In this document: positions 5,951 to 61,099 of the stretch, piece by piece
Numbering within the stretch: the first letter of the stretch is position 1
Layout of the letters: every line of letters starts with the position of its first letter
Assembly (NCBI RefSeq): GCF_050920415.1
Contig: NZ_CP169309.1
Reading direction: 5' to 3' (one strand)
From: Escherichia coli
Lineage (GTDB): Bacteria; Pseudomonadota; Gammaproteobacteria; Enterobacterales; Enterobacteriaceae
Length of the DNA: 64,000 bases
Notes under the pieces: generated by a model
Seen by the model: the letters and a program-made list of their open reading frames with translations, nothing else
What the model was told of the DNA's origin: nothing
The model's database searches: none
Position numbers and translations under genes: made by a program

Positions 5951-6130
5951 AAAAGCGCCTTTAGGGCGCTTTTTTACATTGGTGGGTCGTGCAGGATGAC
6001 TCACTTCGCTCGCCCTTCGGGCCGTCGCCGCGAGCGGCTCCGTTGTTTCGCTGCGCTCAACTCGAACCTGCTGCAGGTTCGAATCTTTGAATATCCCAGA
6101 TAGCAAAAAAGCGCCTTTAGGGCGCTTTTT
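5951..6130 (-). repeat. Duplicated terminator hairpin plus vestigial tRNA-Lys 3' end, distal to lysQ
   Basis: aaaagcgcctttagggcgcttttt occurs at about 5951-5975 and 6106-6131; TTGGTGGGTCGTGCAGGAT (tRNA-Lys 3' end) recurs at 5979-5997 without the rest of the tRNA. Confidence 0.7.
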
Positions 6131-6136
6131 TTACAT

Positions 6137-6212
6137 TGGTGGGTCGTGCAGGATTCGAACCTGCGACCAATTGATTAAAAGTCAACTGCTCTACCAACTG
6201 AGCTAACGACCC
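6137..6212 (-). tRNA. lysQ: tRNA-Lys (anticodon UUU)
   Basis: Reverse complement gives a 76-nt tRNA GGGTCGTTAGCTCAG...CTTTTAATC...CACCA; position 7 of the operon. Confidence 0.93.
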
Positions 6213-6344
6213 CTTGCGGGATTATGCTGCTTTAATCATTCAGGATGGTGGGTCGTGCAGGATGACTCGACTTCGTCTCGCCCTTCGGGCCGTTGCTGAC
6301 GCAACGTTATCCTTCACATTCTCTACCAGTAACCACCTTTAAAT

Positions 6345-6420
6345 TGGTGGGTCGTGCAGGATTCGAACCTGCGACCAATTGATTAAAAGTCAACTGCTCT
6401 ACCAACTGAGCTAACGACCC
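6345..6420 (-). tRNA. lysZ: tRNA-Lys (anticodon UUU)
   Basis: Identical 76-nt tRNA-Lys copy. Confidence 0.93.
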
Positions 6421-6566
6421 ATACGGGTGTTACCTGAATGATTTCTACTCGGGACCAATCTTTAATATTGGTGGATCGTGCAGGATGACTCGCTTCGCTC
6501 GCCCTACGGGCCGTTGCTGGCGCAACGTTATCCTTCACGCTTAACATCTGAGTTTGATGTTAAAAC

Positions 6567-6642
6567 TGGTGGGTCGTGCAGGATTCGAACCTGCGACCAA
6601 TTGATTAAAAGTCAACTGCTCTACCAACTGAGCTAACGACCC
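6567..6642 (-). tRNA. lysY: tRNA-Lys (anticodon UUU)
   Basis: Identical 76-nt tRNA-Lys copy. Confidence 0.93.
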
Positions 6643-6645
6643 GAG

Positions 6646-6721
6646 TGGTGGGTGATGACGGGATCGAACCGCCGACCCCCTCCTTGTAAGGGAGGTGCTC
6701 TCCCAGCTGAGCTAATCACCC
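6646..6721 (-). tRNA. valZ: tRNA-Val (anticodon UAC)
   Basis: Reverse complement gives GGGTGATTAGCTCAGCTGGGAGAGCACCTCCCTTACAAGGAGG...CACCA; 3 nt from lysY. Confidence 0.93.
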
Positions 6722-6771
6722 GATACTGCGCTGGATACTACAAACTACTTCCACCGAACCCACCGCATTAG

Positions 6772-6847
6772 TGGTGGGTCGTGCAGGATTCGAACCTGCG
6801 ACCAATTGATTAAAAGTCAACTGCTCTACCAACTGAGCTAACGACCC
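6772..6847 (-). tRNA. lysW: tRNA-Lys (anticodon UUU)
   Basis: Identical 76-nt tRNA-Lys copy. Confidence 0.93.
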
Positions 6848-6849
6848 GG

Positions 6850-6925
6850 TGGTGGGTGATGACGGGATCGAACCGCCGACCCCCTCCTTGTAAGGGAGGT
6901 GCTCTCCCAGCTGAGCTAATCACCC
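6850..6925 (-). tRNA. valT: tRNA-Val (anticodon UAC)
   Basis: Identical tRNA-Val copy, 2 nt from lysW. Confidence 0.93.
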
Positions 6926-7060
6926 GATACTACGCTGGATACTACAACTAACTAGGTTAGTGGTGGGTCGTGCAGGATGACTCGACTTCGTCTCGCCCTT
7001 CGGGCCGTTGCTGACGCAACGTTATCCTTCACGTTTTACTACCGCTTCCACCTTAGCGAT

Positions 7061-7136
7061 TGGTGGGTCGTGCAGGATTCGAACCTGCGACCAATTGATT
7101 AAAAGTCAACTGCTCTACCAACTGAGCTAACGACCC
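7061..7136 (-). tRNA. lysT: tRNA-Lys (anticodon UUU)
   Basis: First gene of the operon; identical 76-nt tRNA-Lys. Confidence 0.93.
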
Positions 7137-7300
7137 ACTTTTTCGTTGCTTTCGGTTTGTTTGATATCCCGTGGCAACGGCGGCATATATTACTGATTTC
7201 AGACTTGAGCGCAACAAAAATTTCGATGTAGATCACTCAACTGCTTATGATTCGCACGACACGACCAGAAATAATGCGACTTCTGGTCGTGTGTTATGCA

Positions 7301-8092
7301 TTACATCGCGTTCAGACGTTTTTGCGCCTGTTTTGCGCCATCAGTACCAGGGTATTTACTGATAACCTGCTGGTATACGGCTTTCGCTTTTGCGGTGTCA
7401 CCTTTCTCCTGCATGATGACGCCGACTTTAAACATCGCATCTGCAGCCTTCGGTGACTTCGGATAGTTTTTCACTACCGAAGCAAAATAATACGCCGCAT
7501 CATCTTTTTTACCCTTGTTGTAGTTTAACTGACCCAGCCAATAATTGGCGTTTGGCAGGTAAGTTGAATCAGGGTAATTTTTGATGAAATTCTGAAATGC
7601 CACCATTGCGTCATCCTGGCGGGATTTATCCTGCACCAGCGCAATAGCTGCATTGTAATCCGTGTTTGCATCACCGCTTTTCACCGGCGCGCCAGCATTC
7701 GCAGTACCAGCATCAGCTGTCGGCGTCGTTGATGCCGCCGCACCGCTTTGATCGCCGCTGGTTGATTGCGCCGCTGCACCACCGCTGCTGAGGCTATCGA
7801 TCTGCAACAGGATCTGCTTTTGCCGCTCCACGACCTGATTCAGTTGATACTGATTTTCCTGAATCTGACCACGCAGGGAATCAATATCGGATTGATTATC
7901 AGAGAGTTGTTGCTGGAGTTGGGTTAAAAGCTGGCTGTGAGCATTAGAAATACGCTCAAGTTGAGTGACGCGGTCTTCGACCGAGCCTGAGCCGACACTA
8001 CTGATTGGTGCCTGAGCAAAAGCGGCCCAGGGGGCCGCTATACCAACCAGTAACGACAGACTCAATAGTTGATGTCTGAAGTTACTGCTCAT
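7301..8092 (-). CDS. cpoB: Cell-division coordinator CpoB (YbgF), TPR protein
   Basis: 263-aa protein with signal peptide, coiled-coil/Q-rich region and C-terminal TPR repeats; last gene of tol-pal. Confidence 0.9.
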   Translation of the reverse strand: MSSNFRHQLLSLSLLVGIAAPWAAFAQAPISSVGSGSVEDRVTQLERISNAHSQLLTQLQQQLSDNQSDIDSLRGQIQENQYQLNQVVERQKQILLQIDSLSSGGAAAQSTSGDQSGAAASTTPTADAGTANAGAPVKSGDANTDYNAAIALVQDKSRQDDAMVAFQNFIKNYPDSTYLPNANYWLGQLNYNKGKKDDAAYYFASVVKNYPKSPKAADAMFKVGVIMQEKGDTAKAKAVYQQVISKYPGTDGAKQAQKRLNAM

Positions 8093-8101
8093 GCAATTCT
8101 C

Positions 8102-8647
<546 letters not shown>

Positions 8648-18482: not shown

Positions 18483-19024
18483 ATCCACTCTGTGCGAACC
18501 TGTCCTGCATTTATGCCAGAAGTATTAGAATCTTTGCTTAACGTTACTCATACAGTAGCACCTTCATGTGTCTCTCTTTTTTACGAACAATCAAAAGAAC
18601 TAACAAGGGGCATAATTCGTATAAATTATTAACCATTTGTTATATTCAACATTTTTTTACATTAAGCAGAGATGAATTGCAGTGAAATTCAAGTTAAATT
18701 TTACGAAATGTATTACTCATGGCTAAAAAATCTTCCCAAAATGCAAATTAGAAGTTGATCACAATTATCTCAATCCATCAAATCAAGATAATTTTAAAAA
18801 TTTAACATCAATGACAGCGGTTGGCATAACACACTGAATTAAAATGAAAATTTAAAAAACAATTTTTAAACAATCATTTCCCGAAAGACATTTTGAAAAT
18901 AGATCAATTGCAACATTACGGTCAGATAAAGACACTCCTCTGATATTAAACCTGTGCCGTTATGAACGGCCATAAATACGACGTGTGTAACTTAATTTAC
19001 TCTCTGTCTTACAAAGGATTACCC

Positions 19025-23570: not shown

Positions 23571-24941
23571 ATGGCTCGTTCTTTTAAAGTCTTATCGCCA
23601 ACGGCAATCCTCGGGTATGGATTCCCGGAAGAGAGCTTCCGCAAAGCGATGGCAGAATCGCCCGATCTGATCGCCGTTGATGCAGGATCTTCCGATCCAG
23701 GTCCCCACTACCTCGGGGCAGGCAAACCGTTTACCGATCGCGCAGGGGTCAAGCGCGATCTGCGCTATATGATCACCGCAGGCGTGCAAAATAATATACC
23801 GGTGGTGATCGGAACGGCCGGCGGTTCTGGTGCCGCTCCACACCTGGAGTGGTGCCGAGAAATAATTCATGAGATTGCCCGGGAAGAGCGCCTCGCGTTC
23901 TCGATGGCGCTGATCCCGGCAGACGTTGACAAAGCCATCGTCCACCAGGCGCTGGATAACGGCAAAATCACGGCGCTGGATTTTGTCCCGCCGTTAACCC
24001 ACGACTCGATTGACGAAAGTACGTATATCGTCGCGCAAATGGGCATCGAACCCTTCCAGCGGGCGCTGAAAGAAGGAGCGCAAGTGGTGCTGGGCGGGCG
24101 CGCTTACGACCCGGCCTGCTTTGCTGCGCTTCCGATCATGCAAGGCTTTGATGAAGGTCTGGCACTGCATTGTGGGAAAATCCTTGAATGTGCGGCAATC
24201 GCTGCAACACCCGGCTCAGGCTCTGACTGTGCGATGGGCATCATTGATGACAACGGCTTTACGCTGAAGACGTTTAATCCGAAGCGTAAATTTACCGAAA
24301 CGTCAGCTGCTGCACACACACTGTATGAGAAATCCGATCCCTACTTTCTGCCAGGACCTGGCGGCGTGCTAAACCTGAAAGGTTGCACATTTAAAGCGAT
24401 CAATGATGGCGAAGTGTACGTCAGCGGTTCTAAGCATGAAGAAACGCCCTATGCCCTGAAACTGGAAGGTGCGCGGCGGGTGGGTTTCCGCTGTTTGACC
24501 ATCGCCGGAACGCGCGACCCGATCATGATCGCCGGGATCGATAACATCATCGATGAAGTCAAAACCAGCGTTTCGCGTAATCTGTCCTTAGACGATGACA
24601 GCATTCGCATCAATTTCCACCTGTACGGCAAAAACGGGGTGATGGGTGACCATGAACCGATGCAAACTGCCGGGCATGAGCTGGGGATTGTCCTTGATGT
24701 AGTTGCACCGACCCAGGAAATTGCCAACAGCGTTTGCTCGCTGGTGCGCTCTACCATGCTGCACTACGGCTATGAAAACCGCATCGCTACCGCAGGCAAC
24801 CTGGCGTTCCCGTTCTCCCCTTCTGATATCCAGGGCGGGCCGGTATACGAATTTTCCATATATCACCTGATTGAAGCCAACGACGCTCTGCGTTTTGATT
24901 TCCATATTGAACAGGTGACGCCAGAAGGAGTTCAGGCATGA
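23571..24941 (+). CDS. Uncharacterised protein, probably DUF1446 (AtuA-like) family
   Basis: 456-aa soluble protein inside the operon, 4 bp after mal; family assignment is from memory of the AtuA-like family and is tentative. Confidence 0.5.
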   Translation: MARSFKVLSPTAILGYGFPEESFRKAMAESPDLIAVDAGSSDPGPHYLGAGKPFTDRAGVKRDLRYMITAGVQNNIPVVIGTAGGSGAAPHLEWCREIIHEIAREERLAFSMALIPADVDKAIVHQALDNGKITALDFVPPLTHDSIDESTYIVAQMGIEPFQRALKEGAQVVLGGRAYDPACFAALPIMQGFDEGLALHCGKILECAAIAATPGSGSDCAMGIIDDNGFTLKTFNPKRKFTETSAAAHTLYEKSDPYFLPGPGGVLNLKGCTFKAINDGEVYVSGSKHEETPYALKLEGARRVGFRCLTIAGTRDPIMIAGIDNIIDEVKTSVSRNLSLDDDSIRINFHLYGKNGVMGDHEPMQTAGHELGIVLDVVAPTQEIANSVCSLVRSTMLHYGYENRIATAGNLAFPFSPSDIQGGPVYEFSIYHLIEANDALRFDFHIEQVTPEGVQA

Positions 24942-25255
24942 AACAGTCAATTGTCTCACTGGCGCAAGTCATTCGTTCGAAAAATGCCGGACCTTACGAA
25001 CTGGTTTTAGATATTTTATTTAAAACGAAAGAAAACTATGAGCGAGTAAAATCATCAGGGCAATTAACCCCAGAACTGATTGCGCGCTTATATCATGTTG
25101 AACCTGACTTTATTCATCGTATTGTCTGGTTTGATCCTTCTAACGCAGTAAAAATTGTCATGCCACGAGATATTATCTCCGGGAATGTAGGTGACAATGA
25201 TGTCTATGGCGCACAGCAACATGCACCTTTATTAAATATGAGTTTCGATTTGTAA
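24938..25255 (+). CDS. Small uncharacterised protein, probably DUF4387-like partner of the preceding gene
   Basis: 105-aa ORF overlapping the upstream stop by 4 nt (ATGA coupling). Confidence 0.5.
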   Translation: MKQSIVSLAQVIRSKNAGPYELVLDILFKTKENYERVKSSGQLTPELIARLYHVEPDFIHRIVWFDPSNAVKIVMPRDIISGNVGDNDVYGAQQHAPLLNMSFDL

Positions 25256-25341
25256 AAATCCGAACACTTTTAGCCAACTGACATCCCGTCACTTATTGCA
25301 GCTCAACACTTCAGCTATTTGTAAGGTTGTTATAGCAGGTA

Positions 25342-25367
25342 GATGCCTGAATCTCTATTCAGGCATC
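25342..25367 (+). promoter_or_regulatory. Perfect 11-bp inverted repeat (stem-loop or operator) between the DUF4387-like gene and the transporter gene
   Basis: gatgcctgaat-ctct-attcaggcatc; no downstream T-run, so not a classic intrinsic terminator. Confidence 0.4.
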
Positions 25368-25415
25368 CACTTCTCCTGATTCTGATTTATCGCCGTGCAC
25401 CTGATGGAGGAAAAA

Positions 25416-26696
25416 ATGAAGAAAATAAGTTTAACTACGATGATTCTTTTGGCGCTGGTACTTGGAATGATTATCGGCGTAGTGCTCAATAACACTGCTT
25501 CACCGGAAACAGCAAAACTCTATGCGCAAGAAATATCGATATTCACGACGATTTTCTTACGACTGATAAAAATGATTATCGCTCCGTTAGTGGTCTCTAC
25601 CCTGGTGGTAGGTATTGCTAAAATGGGCGATGCCAAAGCCCTTGGTCGTATTTTTTCTAAAACACTCTTTTTATTTATTTGCGCCTCATTGCTGTCAATT
25701 GCCTTAGGCTTGATAACGGTAAATTTCTTCATGCCAGGCACAGGAATTAATTTTGTTGCACACGGTGCCGAAACCACCGGAGTGGTCGCGTCAGAACCCT
25801 TTACACTAAAAGTATTTATTTCGCATGCTTTCCCCACCAGCATTGTCGATGCCATGGCGCACAATGAAATTTTGCAAATCGTGGTGTTCTCAATTTTCCT
25901 CGGCTGTAGCCTGACGGCGATTGGTGAGAAAGGCAGCGCCATCGTTCACGCCTTAGATTCGCTGGCACATGCCATGTTAAAGCTCACTGGCTACGTCATG
26001 CTCTTCGCTCCCCTGACCGTATTCGCCGCTATTTCAGCATTGATTGCTGAACGAGGACTGGCAGTTATGGTGAGCGCCGGGATCTTTATGGGTGAATTTT
26101 ATTTCACCATGTTATTACTTTGGGTGCTGCTTATCGGTCTGGCCATCGTTTATGTCGGCCCCTGCATCAGACGCCTGACCCGCGCCCTTTCAGAACCCGC
26201 CCTGCTGGCATTTACCACATCCAGTTCTGAAGCTGCTTTTCCGGGAACGCTTGAAAAACTGGAGCAATTTGGCGTTTCCCCCAAAATTGCCAGCTTTGTC
26301 TTACCCATTGGCTACTCATTTAATCTCGTTGGATCAATGGCCTACTGCTCCTTCGCCACAGTTTTCATCGCCCAGGCCTGCAATATCCATTTATCCATCG
26401 GTGAGCAAATCACCATGCTGTTGATCCTGATGTTGACCTCGAAAGGAATGGCTGGCGTACCACGCGCCTCAATGGTGGTTATCGCCGCCACGCTCAACCA
26501 GTTCAATATTCCGGAAGCGGGGCTGATCTTGCTGATGGGCGTTGATCCGTTCCTTGATATGGGGCGTTCCGCGACAAACGTCATGAGCAACGCAATGGGC
26601 GCTGCGATGGTGAGTCGGTGGGAAGGCGAACATTTCGGCGAGGGTTGTCGGGGTAAAGCATTAAAACCCAATGAATCGAACGTTGCTCTGCCCTGA
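25416..26696 (+). CDS. Dicarboxylate/amino acid:cation symporter (DAACS/GltP-DctA family)
   Basis: Polytopic membrane protein with an AFTTSSSEAAFP motif typical of the family; GGAGG RBS 5 nt before ATG 25416; the track ORF starts at an upstream GTG. Confidence 0.8.
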   Translation: MKKISLTTMILLALVLGMIIGVVLNNTASPETAKLYAQEISIFTTIFLRLIKMIIAPLVVSTLVVGIAKMGDAKALGRIFSKTLFLFICASLLSIALGLITVNFFMPGTGINFVAHGAETTGVVASEPFTLKVFISHAFPTSIVDAMAHNEILQIVVFSIFLGCSLTAIGEKGSAIVHALDSLAHAMLKLTGYVMLFAPLTVFAAISALIAERGLAVMVSAGIFMGEFYFTMLLLWVLLIGLAIVYVGPCIRRLTRALSEPALLAFTTSSSEAAFPGTLEKLEQFGVSPKIASFVLPIGYSFNLVGSMAYCSFATVFIAQACNIHLSIGEQITMLLILMLTSKGMAGVPRASMVVIAATLNQFNIPEAGLILLMGVDPFLDMGRSATNVMSNAMGAAMVSRWEGEHFGEGCRGKALKPNESNVALP

Positions 26697-29071: not shown

Positions 29072-29105
29072 CTGCGCCTGGCATCCCGCCAGGCGCAGGT
29101 TTTAC
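29072..29105. terminator. Bidirectional hairpin terminator between the cobA-like and LysR genes
   Basis: ctgcgcctgg-catcccg-ccaggcgcag with flanking T/A runs; lies between convergent stop codons. Confidence 0.6.
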
Positions 29106-30007
29106 ATCTCCTGCGGTACGACCGATTTCGCCAGCAACCATTCACGAAATTGCTGCAAGTGCGGAGAGTCAGACTTCTCTTCCTGCCACGTCATAATAAA
29201 ACGATTACCGGTACGAATAGGCACATCACAGGGGATCACCATATCGCCACTATCCAAATCATGTTGAATAGCGAACCGTGGTAACAGCGCCACGCCGAGA
29301 TTAGAGCGCACGGCGGCAATCAGCATTGAAAGCAAATCGAAACGTGGTCCGTTATTGACCAGCGGACTGCTAACGCCAGATAAAGCAAACCACTCTTCCC
29401 AGCCAGTAATACGGGTGCTTTGATGCAGAAGTGGTAACTCAGTAAGCAGTTCTGCCACTGACAGTTTTTGATCGGACATTGCAAGCAAACTGCCGCTGCA
29501 TACCGGCAAAATCTCCTCTTCAAAGAGATATTCTACTTCCGCCCAGGGCGCGCAAAAATTTTCGCGCATAATGACAGCATCGTACTCCCGATTAAGAAAA
29601 TCGCCGTTATTAGCTAAAGAATGAATATTAACAATAATATCGGGATGTAACTTTGTGAATTCATGTAAATTTGGGATTAACCAGTGGGTACTAAACGTAG
29701 GATTAACGGCAAGTTCAATAACCTGAACCGTAGGCTGCCAGGTCATAATCGTATTGGTATCGCGTTCCAGCTTATTTAATGTTTCTTTTACTATCCCCAG
29801 GTAATACTTCCCTGCATCATTAAGAAAAATGCGTTTTTTAGAGTGTGAAAATAACGGAGTATGTAAAAATTCCTCCAGCGCACTTACTTGTCTGAATACA
29901 GCACTTTGGGTTAACGCTAACTCCTCAGCCGCTCTGGTATAACTTTCATGTCGTGCGACGACCTCAAAAGTCACCAGCAGCTCCGTTTTAGGTATTTTTC
30001 CTCGCAT
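29102..30007 (-). CDS. LysR-family transcriptional regulator
   Basis: N-terminal helix-turn-helix (YTRAAEELALTQSAVFRQV) plus co-inducer-binding domain; start chosen at the internal Met (MRGKIP...), the track ORF extends to 30037. Confidence 0.8.
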   Translation of the reverse strand: MRGKIPKTELLVTFEVVARHESYTRAAEELALTQSAVFRQVSALEEFLHTPLFSHSKKRIFLNDAGKYYLGIVKETLNKLERDTNTIMTWQPTVQVIELAVNPTFSTHWLIPNLHEFTKLHPDIIVNIHSLANNGDFLNREYDAVIMRENFCAPWAEVEYLFEEEILPVCSGSLLAMSDQKLSVAELLTELPLLHQSTRITGWEEWFALSGVSSPLVNNGPRFDLLSMLIAAVRSNLGVALLPRFAIQHDLDSGDMVIPCDVPIRTGNRFIMTWQEEKSDSPHLQQFREWLLAKSVVPQEM

Positions 30008-30596
30008 AATGCCGTCCGTGAAAAAATAACAACTCAAAAATTATTTTATAAAAAACAGTAGCACTAATGAATATCATAATTCAAATAAACAAACCAGTCA
30101 GCTATATGTCTAACCAGGAAAATAAAGTGACAATAATCCTAAAACAGGAATTTCACCTCAGTTATCCGCATGCAATACTTTAAAGCTATTATTGCAAGAA
30201 TATTATTCATATACATGAATATACTCTAAATAAGTCAAGTTGCAGGAAGGGAACAAATAATGAATTTCCAGAAGCTTACATAAGTAAGTGACCTGGGTGA
30301 GCGAACATCGATGCAGCACATGCAACTTGAATTATGACAAGTATACAATGATAAATTTATATACCCTATGTTATATATTATCTATGTCCGGTTAAATTGA
30401 ATGAGTCATAGCCTTAAAAGACTTCACAAAAGATAATTCCTCTTTAACAATAAGCCAGATTTACCACTTGTAAAACTTGCTATCGCCACATACACTACGC
30501 GCGTTTTCTTTCCCTTTTGCTGGCTGCTGACCGGAAAGACAAAATTACCCTCGCAATACAGGGGGTTGTTTAACGTCTATATTTCAGGACAGCGTT

Positions 30597-31994
30597 ATGC
30601 ATCATCTTTTAAGGCTTGATAAAGCCTTTCTGCGCAAAGGGATCCAACTTTCCCGTGCCAACAATATTGTTTCATTATGTCGTCCATCAGGAGCCAGTGC
30701 CCGCGTACTGCTGCCGGACGAACTGCCGCTGGAAGAAAAAGCAGTGACACAACTGCTTGATTTTGCAGAAGTGAAGATACCAGGCCATCCAGGTTACGTA
30801 CGCCAGACGTGCGCGACGCCAGATTTTCATCCCGGCAATGGCGTCCCCGTTGGCGCGGTGGTGGCCTCAACGCCGGATTTAGTCATTCCCGCCGCCATCG
30901 GCACCGATATTTCTTGTGGCATGCGGCTGCTGACGACCGGATTAACACTTGAGCAAGCCGAAGCGCATAAAGACGTCATCGCTCAGCGGTTAACGCAAGT
31001 GCTACTGCAAAATGAGCGCGATGTTCCGTTATCCGCACAGGCGTTCACCGCGCTTTTTGATGGCGGACCGGCAGATTGCGTGTCGACCTTGCCATCAGCA
31101 GGTCTCTGGACACGCACGAATATCCCCCGAATGGTACAAGAGATTGACCGCTGCATTGGGCTTAACGAGCATAACAGTCATTCGCGTTATGCCCCACCCG
31201 CCCTGCTGGCAACGGACCGCGCATTACTCCGCGATCCTTGTCTGGGTACGCCGGGTTCAGGTAATCATTTTATTGAACTTCAGGTCGTTGATAGCGTGGT
31301 TGATCGCCATGTAGCCTGGCAACAAGGGCTGAAAACAGGCGATATTGTGGTGATGATCCACAGTGGATCGCGAGATGTTGGCTTTTACGTCGGAAGACGC
31401 TGGATGGATCGCGCCCGTGCTGAATGGCCCACCGGACATAAACATCCACAAAGCGGGTTATATGGTCTGGCAGGCGGACTGGCGGAGGAATATCTACAAG
31501 CGATAGGAATGGCGGCGCGTTACGCGTGGTTAAATCGCGTGACAATTGCCGAAATGGTGCGCGTATGTCTTGCCAATCTCTTTCATCAGGACAATTCGCA
31601 TCTGGTGGTGGATGTGCCACATAACATCATCCTTCGCGAGCATGAAATGAATATTCATCGCAAAGGCGCAACACCGGCACGAGTGGGCAATCTGGCGTTA
31701 ATCCCTGGTTCAATGGGCGATTATTCGTGGCTTGCGGTAGGTTGCGGCAACCCGGAGTGGCTGTGGTCATGCAGTCACGGAGCAGGACGCAGCCAGCGTC
31801 GGCAGGCCATGCGCTCACGCGCGACTGAAGAGTCAACGCTGCCGTGGCAATGCGTCACATTGCGCGAAGAACGACGTCTTGAAGAAGCGCCAGCGGCTTA
31901 TAAAGATATTGGTCCGGTTATCGAAGCTCAACAAGAAGCCGGATTAATTCAGCCAGCGGTCAGATTTCGACCGTGGTTAACGTTTAAAGCATAA
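30597..31994 (+). CDS. RtcB-family RNA ligase paralogue (3'-phosphate/5'-OH ligase)
   Basis: 465 aa with the RtcB signature blocks IPAAIGTDISCGMRL, GSGNHFIEL, MIHSGSRDVG, IPGSMGDYS and CSHGAGR; about 30-aa N-terminal extension relative to K-12 RtcB. Confidence 0.8.
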   Translation: MHHLLRLDKAFLRKGIQLSRANNIVSLCRPSGASARVLLPDELPLEEKAVTQLLDFAEVKIPGHPGYVRQTCATPDFHPGNGVPVGAVVASTPDLVIPAAIGTDISCGMRLLTTGLTLEQAEAHKDVIAQRLTQVLLQNERDVPLSAQAFTALFDGGPADCVSTLPSAGLWTRTNIPRMVQEIDRCIGLNEHNSHSRYAPPALLATDRALLRDPCLGTPGSGNHFIELQVVDSVVDRHVAWQQGLKTGDIVVMIHSGSRDVGFYVGRRWMDRARAEWPTGHKHPQSGLYGLAGGLAEEYLQAIGMAARYAWLNRVTIAEMVRVCLANLFHQDNSHLVVDVPHNIILREHEMNIHRKGATPARVGNLALIPGSMGDYSWLAVGCGNPEWLWSCSHGAGRSQRRQAMRSRATEESTLPWQCVTLREERRLEEAPAAYKDIGPVIEAQQEAGLIQPAVRFRPWLTFKA

Positions 31995-34209: not shown

Positions 34210-34380
34210 CCCGTAGGCCTGATAAGACGCGCAAGCGTCGCATCAGGCATCGCGTGTCGGATGCGGCGCGAGCGCCTTATCCGACCTACATCGGTGCTTC
34301 CCGTAGGCCTGATAAGACGCGTTAAGCGTCGCATCAGGCTTCAATTGCCGGAGAAAGCGATAATGCCTCATCCGGTCTAC
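34210..34380. repeat. REP/BIME cluster in the sucB-sucC spacer
   Basis: Three or more REP palindromes of the gcctgataagacgcg...cgtcgcatcaggc / gccggatgcggcg types. Confidence 0.75.
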
Positions 34381-38609: not shown

Positions 38610-38688
38610 TTGTAGGCCGGATAACGCATTCACGCCGCATCCGGCACTGGTTGCCTGATGCGACGCTTGTGCGTCTTATCAGGCCTGG
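38610..38688. repeat. REP pair in the sdhB-sucA spacer
   Basis: Two REP palindromes; an additional aaaaactg...cagttttt hairpin lies at about 38556-38590. Confidence 0.7.
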
Positions 38689-60893: not shown

Positions 60894-61099
60894 TTTGTTC
60901 TCCTTAATTATGTAAGGAGTATTTGATCATGTATAAGCAATAAAAAACAGCTTCAGGTAATGAGGAATATCTCAATTTTTAAACATAAAATGCGAATTAT
61001 TTAGTACAAAAAAGCAGCGTTAAGTGAGTAGGCCACCGGAACCTCCCCGACAGCCTCTCGCAGAACCGTACGTGAAACTCTCGCTTCATACGGCTCCCG

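Follow-up and report, generated by a model that had tools for sequence, protein, structure and literature searches.

The 160-nt spacer between the DUF4387 gene and the transporter gene of an accessory methylaspartate operon in E. coli contains a strong hairpin, which is very probably a selected structure of the sense-strand RNA. Most likely, it is an ordinary element for mRNA stability or attenuation within the operon and not a protein-binding operator. As for the specific mechanism, our analysis assigns a probability of roughly one in two to a barrier that may stop exonucleases behind the enzyme genes. Elements of this kind are already known; this one is newly documented at its locus and reveals no new mechanism.

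The operon and its internal hairpin

The window, by which we mean the whole stretch of 64,000 nucleotides that was analyzed, is a part of the E. coli chromosome in which an accessory island sits between cydA and sucD. The island codes for the breakdown (fermentation) of glutamate by the methylaspartate (mesaconate) route, with the gene order glmS, glmL, glmE, methylaspartate ammonia-lyase (mal), an AtuA-family gene (atuA), the DUF4387 gene, the spacer, a DAACS (GltP-like) transporter gene, fumD, and cobA. The product of fumD is the class I fumarase FumD; the names of the pathway and of FumD follow a published study, and the island may have a role in gut glutamate use (PMC4682846). Around 1124 of 5426 complete E. 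coli genomes (~21%) carry the island, and it is present in most O157:H7 strains. A LysR-type gene lies at 29102-30037 on the minus strand, convergent with cobA and ~4 kb from the hairpin. Between this gene and sucD there is an RtcB-family gene (30597-31994), which is not at that position in O157:H7 Sakai (L115). The names deposited for two Sakai genes, ECs_0759 ("acyl-CoA synthetase" for the DUF4387 gene) and ECs_0760 ("3-methylaspartate ammonia-lyase" for the AtuA-family gene), conflict with the Pfam/NCBIfam assignments.

Table 1. Positions of the spacer features and of the flanking genes in the window
Feature	Position	Strand	Remark
DUF4387 gene, last of the enzyme block glmS-glmL-glmE-mal-atuA-DUF4387	24938..25255	+	Stop codon 25253-25255
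Full predicted RNA stem-loop, 16 positions per arm	25337..25372	+	A.C mismatch 25341/25368
Left arm of the 11-bp repeat, GATGCCTGAAT	25342..25352	+	Read from the sequence
Loop CTCT, 4 nt	25353..25356	+	Read from the sequence
Right arm of the 11-bp repeat, ATTCAGGCATC	25357..25367	+	Read from the sequence
Tail 3′ of the stem, CTCCTGATTCTGATTTA, pyrimidine-rich and G-poor	25373..25389	+	Read from the sequence
Transporter Shine-Dalgarno sequence GGAGG	25406..25410	+	Within a (C)YGATGGAG block that is near-invariant between genera
DAACS (GltP-like) transporter gene, first of the block transporter-fumD-cobA	25416..26696	+	
Terminator-like hairpin at the operon end, 3′ of cobA, 11-bp stem, tail GTTTTACATC	29072..29098	+	Delimits the downstream segment on its 3′ side

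The perfect 11-bp inverted repeat with a 4-nt loop that the preliminary description had placed at 25342-25367 was matched exactly in the window sequence. Its arms lengthen to 14 nt (25339-25352/25357-25370) with a single A.C mismatch at 25341/25368, and the RNA stem extends further, by a G.U and an A-U pair, to 25337-25372, with a folding energy of −19.1 kcal/mol for the window allele. The hairpin begins 84 nt past the stop codon of DUF4387, and its end is 45 nt short of the transporter ATG (25416). Its position in O157:H7 Sakai is 846,818-846,849 of NC_002695.2 (complement). The loop is TTTT in some E. coli strains and 8-11 nt long in the orthologues of the Citrobacter group.

The window contains nine perfect hairpin repeats with a stem of 11 bp or more and a loop of 3-10 nt, compared with 0.15 expected from a first-order Markov simulation. 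This excess and the covariation of the stem between genera place the repeat beyond chance. The clearest other hairpins of that size in the window have T-run tails, including the one at 29072-29098. The best local hairpin of the spacer had a z-score of −3.7 with the window allele and −5.9 with the common allele, and none of 60 shuffled sequences was equally stable. Three other spacers checked in the E. coli operon showed no unusual hairpin (transporter-fumD, z +0.9; glmL-glmE, +1.7; upstream of glmS, −0.8), and the hairpin is the sole strong internal RNA structure found in this operon.

Variation of the stem within and between species

Alleles of the hairpin in E. coli were counted as exact 42-mer matches among 1124 records, the genomes of which are not phylogenetically independent. 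The perfect, fully paired stem was found in 611 records, a right-arm A-to-G allele giving a U.G wobble in 316, and a left-arm A-to-G allele giving a G.U wobble in 96. An A.C mismatch is produced by two further alleles, namely a left-arm G-to-A change (2 records) and the T25368C change carried by the window (16 of the 1124 records). All four variant alleles are transitions, and the wobble-preserving ones (412) are around 20-fold commoner than the disruptive ones (18), which is the direction predicted by selection on a helix in the sense-strand RNA. Most E. coli strains, including O157:H7 and 042, have T at 25368, which yields a perfect 14-bp repeat (16 bp as RNA) with a folding energy of −23.7 kcal/mol; the C of the window costs the stem ~4.6 kcal/mol. 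The window haplotype, a minority form in which the hairpin is weakened, combines T at 25331 with C at 25368, in place of the A and T of ~98% of island-positive E. coli. E. coli 100416 (L005, locus 1749-2500) has lost the DUF4387 gene together with the first ~86 nt of the spacer, and an IS1 copy stands exactly within the left arm of its hairpin.

A scan with the DUF4387 protein, using one genome per species, yielded 58 loci. The alignment A2 contains 36 orthologous spacers, taken from Escherichia, Citrobacter, Klebsiella, Enterobacter, Salmonella, and others. Spacers of ~165 nt that could be aligned to that of E. coli were present in Citrobacter, Klebsiella, Enterobacter, Salmonella arizonae/diarizonae, Buttiauxella, Lelliottia, Pluralibacter, and Raoultella. 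At the aligned position, the non-Escherichia genera have a hairpin of 15-17 bp, typically GGCGTGCGTCTGAGC-loop-GCTCAGGCGCACGCC, and the main helix was recovered by RNAalifold. Twelve of the 13 stem pairs, or 13 of 15 in the extended stem, were changed on both sides among the 36 sequences, with 94%-95% of the stem cells paired, compared with 16%-48% in slid controls. None of 500 shuffles matched the observed covariation score or the percentage of paired cells. Among the cells outside Watson-Crick pairing, G.U outnumbered A.C by 44 to 9 (55 to 14 in the extended stem), which indicates a helix in the RNA of the plus (sense) strand and argues against a recognition site in duplex DNA. In E. coli and the Citrobacter group, the hairpin lies 41-45 nt ahead of the transporter ATG and ~80 nt past the upstream stop codon. 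The transporter itself is orthologous (76%-89% identity, frame 25416-26693) in every Enterobacterales locus that has one.

Conservation in the non-Escherichia genera extends beyond the stem. Two unpaired, near-invariant blocks, TTCATGCGGTTGGTCACAACAGG and CCCTACAC, flank the hairpin (A2 columns 61-88 and 129-137; around 6380-6460 in locus L042). In the Citrobacter group, the 26 nt that directly precede the hairpin have a pairwise identity of 0.91, about that of first and second codon positions (0.67 at third positions), and CCCTACAC follows just 3′ of the hairpin. A further helix, P0, was found at A2 columns 24-60, 20-60 nt past the DUF4387 stop codon; 5 of its 8 pairs are changed on both sides, and at the pair 30-54, for example, 21 sequences have U-A and 14 have C-G. 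P0 is not formed in E. coli.

Hairpins were also present where the spacers could not be aligned. In all 15 lineage representatives, the best local hairpin of the spacer had a z-score between −2.4 and −9.3, with 0-2 of 60 dinucleotide shuffles equally stable, and these boundary hairpins are built from at least five unrelated sequences. The hairpin stands 8-45 nt past the DUF4387 stop codon in several lineages, and in lineages other than E. coli and the Citrobacter group it is close to that codon and 51-220 nt from the next start codon. A divergent Escherichia lineage has TATGAGTGGCATA-GTTTT-TATGCCACTCATA, 15 nt past the stop codon, and the Pseudescherichia group has GGGGTACGC...GCGTACCCC. In Yersinia, the hairpin CGGTGCATTG...TGATGCACCG is followed by TTTTTTCT and was called as a canonical terminator with a T6 tail, and the Morganella spacer has two hairpins, the second with the T-rich tail TCATTTTTCT. 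The transporter gene is absent from Escherichia sp. E1V33 and E. whittamii (L009, L010), in which DUF4387 is followed by a spacer of 270-290 nt and then fumD; a hairpin of 13 bp or more is still present after DUF4387. Judged from these comparisons, selection appears to act on the hairpin as such, with its sequence, its loop, and even its position being free, and its place always at the boundary after DUF4387. The locus is thus a clean natural case of a structure that was kept and a sequence that was replaced, with at least five unrelated hairpins at one gene boundary in different Enterobacterales, and lends support to the general view of hairpins inside operons as features under selection.

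Several differences between the loci of other genera were also recorded. ERIC/IRU-like insertions lengthen the DUF4387-transporter spacer to 282 and 364 nt in two K. oxytoca loci (L018, L029). The Citrobacter, Klebsiella, and Enterobacter loci have, between the transporter gene and fumD, a glutaminase gene (PF04960; 7917-8918 in L042) that is absent from E. coli; the spacers on both sides of it contain REP-like GCCGGAT...ATCCGGC hairpins. One contig labelled as a Collinsella sp. MAG (L007) encodes proteins 98%-100% identical to those of the E. coli island and is probably a binning contaminant.

Candidate functions of the hairpin

In the mechanism that we propose, the repeat would be transcribed within the polycistronic glmS...cobA mRNA and fold into a stable sense stem-loop, which would act as an operon-internal boundary element irrespective of its sequence. 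Following an endonucleolytic cut in the unstructured, U-rich transporter leader or further 3′, the stem-loop would stop 3′-to-5′ exonucleases (PNPase, RNase II), so that the enzyme segment (glutamate mutase, methylaspartate ammonia-lyase, AtuA/DUF4387) would outlive the transporter-fumD-cobA segment. The hairpin may additionally cause some pausing or leaky termination. The sequences GA|UUC and GA|UUU in the E. coli tail fit the degenerate RNase E motif RN|WUU (PMC5927463), which is weak evidence, as a prediction only, for cleavage there. Conserved protective structures at operon segment boundaries have been described in E. coli, Salmonella, and Enterobacter (PMC5927463). The closest parallel is the protective 3′ structure between malE and malF (Dar & Sorek, 2018; PMC5927463). 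Both are stable stem-loops without a U-tract between soluble-protein genes and a membrane-transporter gene, both are conserved between enterobacterial genera, and sequence-independent action is expected of both. However, the malE-malF element is a REP sequence from a multi-copy family, whereas the present hairpin is single-copy and unrelated in sequence, and its differential decay is inferred.

One of the two proposals of the preliminary description had been that the hairpin, as an element for RNA processing or stability, determines the enzyme-to-transporter ratio. The structure, the selection on it, and the sense strand fit this proposal; differential mRNA stability or attenuation is what we infer as the effect of the hairpin, and the same applies to the ratio. 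The retention of a structure at the DUF4387 boundary even where the transporter gene was lost counts in favor of the barrier. On the other side, the hairpin of E. coli and the Citrobacter group is nearer to the transporter start than to the upstream stop codon, so that a role in a 5′ untranslated region fits equally well, and a generic exonuclease barrier leaves the conserved single-stranded blocks of the Citrobacter group unexplained. The logic of high enzyme and low transporter levels is also incomplete, because the downstream block encodes enzymes as well (FumD, CobA). The literature and its supplements yielded no transcript, 3′-end, or half-life data for ECs0757-0761, Z0888-0893, or Sakai 8467xx-8469xx. 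Since it is the sole strong internal structure found in the E. coli operon and is under selection, the hairpin is the obvious place to ask how the stoichiometry of the B12-dependent enzymes relative to transporter-FumD-CobA is controlled.

Three other roles in the RNA were weighed against the exonuclease barrier. The hairpin could be a leaky terminator or attenuator, at which RNA polymerase pauses and partly terminates, intrinsically or with NusA, NusG, or Rho, so that fewer transporter-fumD-cobA transcripts are made. Like an intrinsic terminator, the sense transcript has a stable, GC-containing stem of 14-16 bp (−19 to −24 kcal/mol) with a 4-nt loop. The E. coli tail is pyrimidine-rich, its region being C-rich and G-poor as in rut sites, and at the same boundary Yersinia has its canonical terminator and Morganella its T-rich one. 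However, a U-tract (at least 5 T in 8 nt) was not found 3′ of the stem, the tail being TTCTCCTG or CTCCTGAT with 3-4 T in 8, and the terminator scan did not call the full stem with either allele, which bears out the earlier statements that a U-tract is absent and that the hairpin is not an obvious intrinsic terminator. The homologous tail of the Citrobacter group, ACCCTACAC, is clearly without a U-tract (1 T in 8). Moreover, FumD, which is needed for the same pathway, is encoded downstream in the same operon, and strong termination would therefore be counterproductive; we consider this role unlikely. A 5′ element of the transporter mRNA is also unlikely. It would either cap transporter-fumD-cobA after an RNase E cut upstream, as in the papBA model of a 5′ stem-loop that stabilizes the downstream cistron after RNase E cleavage (PMC5927463), or lower translation through masking of the transporter Shine-Dalgarno sequence by CUCC. 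As in papBA, the hairpin is intercistronic, has AU-rich single-stranded RNA just 5′ of it, and ends ~45 nt from the next start codon (41-45 nt in E. coli and the Citrobacter group). The Shine-Dalgarno sequence is predicted to be mostly paired (probability of being unpaired, 0.26-0.28), its predicted partner being the CTCC of the tail (CUCC 25373-25376). Nevertheless, the CUCC/GGAGG pairing, although predicted in E. coli, was rejected as a model because its segment is not conserved: the linker evolves in a neutral-like manner, with an identity of 0.58 and with indels. Unlike in papBA, the hairpin also survives deletion of the transporter gene (L009, L010), and in other lineages it hugs the upstream stop codon, at 51-220 nt from the next start. 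Finally, the spacer might be part of a larger, locus-specific and undescribed cis-regulatory leader RNA of the enterobacterial methylaspartate operon, which would gate the transporter in response to a metabolite or other ligand or to a protein, with the E. coli hairpin as its most conserved helix and surviving core. Such an RNA is suggested by the form shared by Citrobacter, Klebsiella, and Salmonella, with two covarying helices (P0 and the hairpin) and near-invariant unpaired blocks (UUCAUGCGGUUGGUCACAACAGG, CCCUACAC), and by a possible closing helix GGTTGGT/ACCAGCC (94% paired); GCTGGT/ACCAGC also occurs in the Pseudescherichia group. Yet the changes in the closing helix are one-sided only, and neither P0 nor CCCTACAC nor the 3′ strand of that helix is present in E. 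coli. No Rfam family gave a credible match in the E. coli or Citrobacter spacer, and of 34 exact matches to the conserved block in metagenomes, 20 were this spacer and 14 lay in unrelated, mostly coding-looking contexts. We regard the leader RNA as quite unlikely.

The other proposal of the preliminary description, a palindromic operator for an internal promoter, was not upheld. A dimeric regulator (ArgR-like, Cra-like, or the LysR-type protein of the island) would bind the palindrome and control that promoter, and we consider this most improbable. The core TGAAT-N4-ATTCA matches the conserved core of the ARG box, and CTGAAT resembles a Cra half-site. The ARG box consensus is the 18-bp TNTGAATWWWWATTCANW. 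Against it, TGAAT and ATTCA are exact, but two of the four central W positions are C (the center is CTCT, not A/T-rich) and both outer T/W positions fail. The second ARG box 3 bp away is absent, as the flanking 18-mers on both sides are unlike a box; no promoter-like site was found, and the Cra spacing is off by 2 bp. LysR-type proteins bind odd-spaced dyads with T-N11-A, which the even 4-nt center, giving T-N4-A or T-N12-A, makes impossible; the earlier suggestion of the LysR protein also meets a gene that is convergent with cobA and distant from the site. A promoter scan found no sigma-70-like promoter on the plus strand of the spacer with either allele. The orthologues do not keep the box, having CTGAGC-N8-11-GCTCAG or unrelated stems; their arms vary freely between genera with compensation (GCGTGCGTCTGAGC in one, GTAGATGCCTGAAT in another), and the loop ranges from 4 to 11 nt. 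The preference for G.U over A.C would be senseless for duplex DNA. The palindrome is thus a single box with a C-containing center, a wrong Cra spacing, and the variation pattern of a paired RNA, and the operator reading is not supported. It is very unlikely, too, that the hairpin is without function, whether as a palindrome that is selfish or arose by chance or as what is left of a mobile or repeat element. The IS1 copy in the left arm of one strain and the ERIC-like and REP-like elements in neighboring spacers of other genera lend this view something. REP/BIME and ERIC sequences likewise are imperfect palindromes in intergenic spacers of enterobacterial operons, but those of the neighboring spacers look different from the present hairpin, which has no similarity to REP/naRNA4 or ERIC. 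The 42-nt query matched one locus per genome, only in 1123 island-positive genomes of the 5426, by which a dispersed repeat family of the REP/BIME type was rejected. The naRNA4 (REP) matches of the window start at 34216 and 38615 and not at the hairpin, and a permissive scan of 24800-25700 gave nothing relevant. The covariation and the allele spectrum point to purifying selection on pairing.

Rejected candidates and further observations

Some other readings of the spacer were discarded. The common allele contains a −10-like hexamer, TGTAAT, which is without a −35 partner and not conserved. A sigma-54 −24/−12 reading of GGTTGGTCAC...GC, made by eye, has a spacing that is off by one. A small ORF of the Citrobacter group, from the ATG of TTCATGCGG through the hairpin, was excluded by loop indels that are not multiples of three and by the covariation of the stem. 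The conserved 5′ block is not a wider regulatory motif, its exact metagenome matches being confined to this spacer or to unrelated contexts.

Elsewhere in the window, Rfam matches above the gathering score were found at 5980-8201, 34216-34286, 38615-38685, and 61023-61098, comprising a tRNA/RtT cluster, the CpoB/ybgF thermometer, the two naRNA4 (REP) copies, and a group II intron fragment. Upstream of the E. coli glmS, GCGGTTGGCATAACACAC (18815-18834) resembles the Citrobacter-group block 5′ of the hairpin; the resemblance is probably coincidental, because the glmS upstream regions of other genera do not keep this sequence. In Citrobacter and Klebsiella, CCCTACA stands directly 5′ of the glmS Shine-Dalgarno sequence (CAGCCCTACAGAGGA). 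A 22-nt block, ATTTTGAAAATAGATCAATTGC, lies upstream of glmS at around 18893-18914 of the window (columns 294-315 of alignment A3) and is invariant in E. coli, Citrobacter, Klebsiella, and Salmonella. Its FNR/CRP-like half-sites (TTGAA...ATCAA) have a non-canonical spacing; the block is a likely site for the main regulator of the operon.
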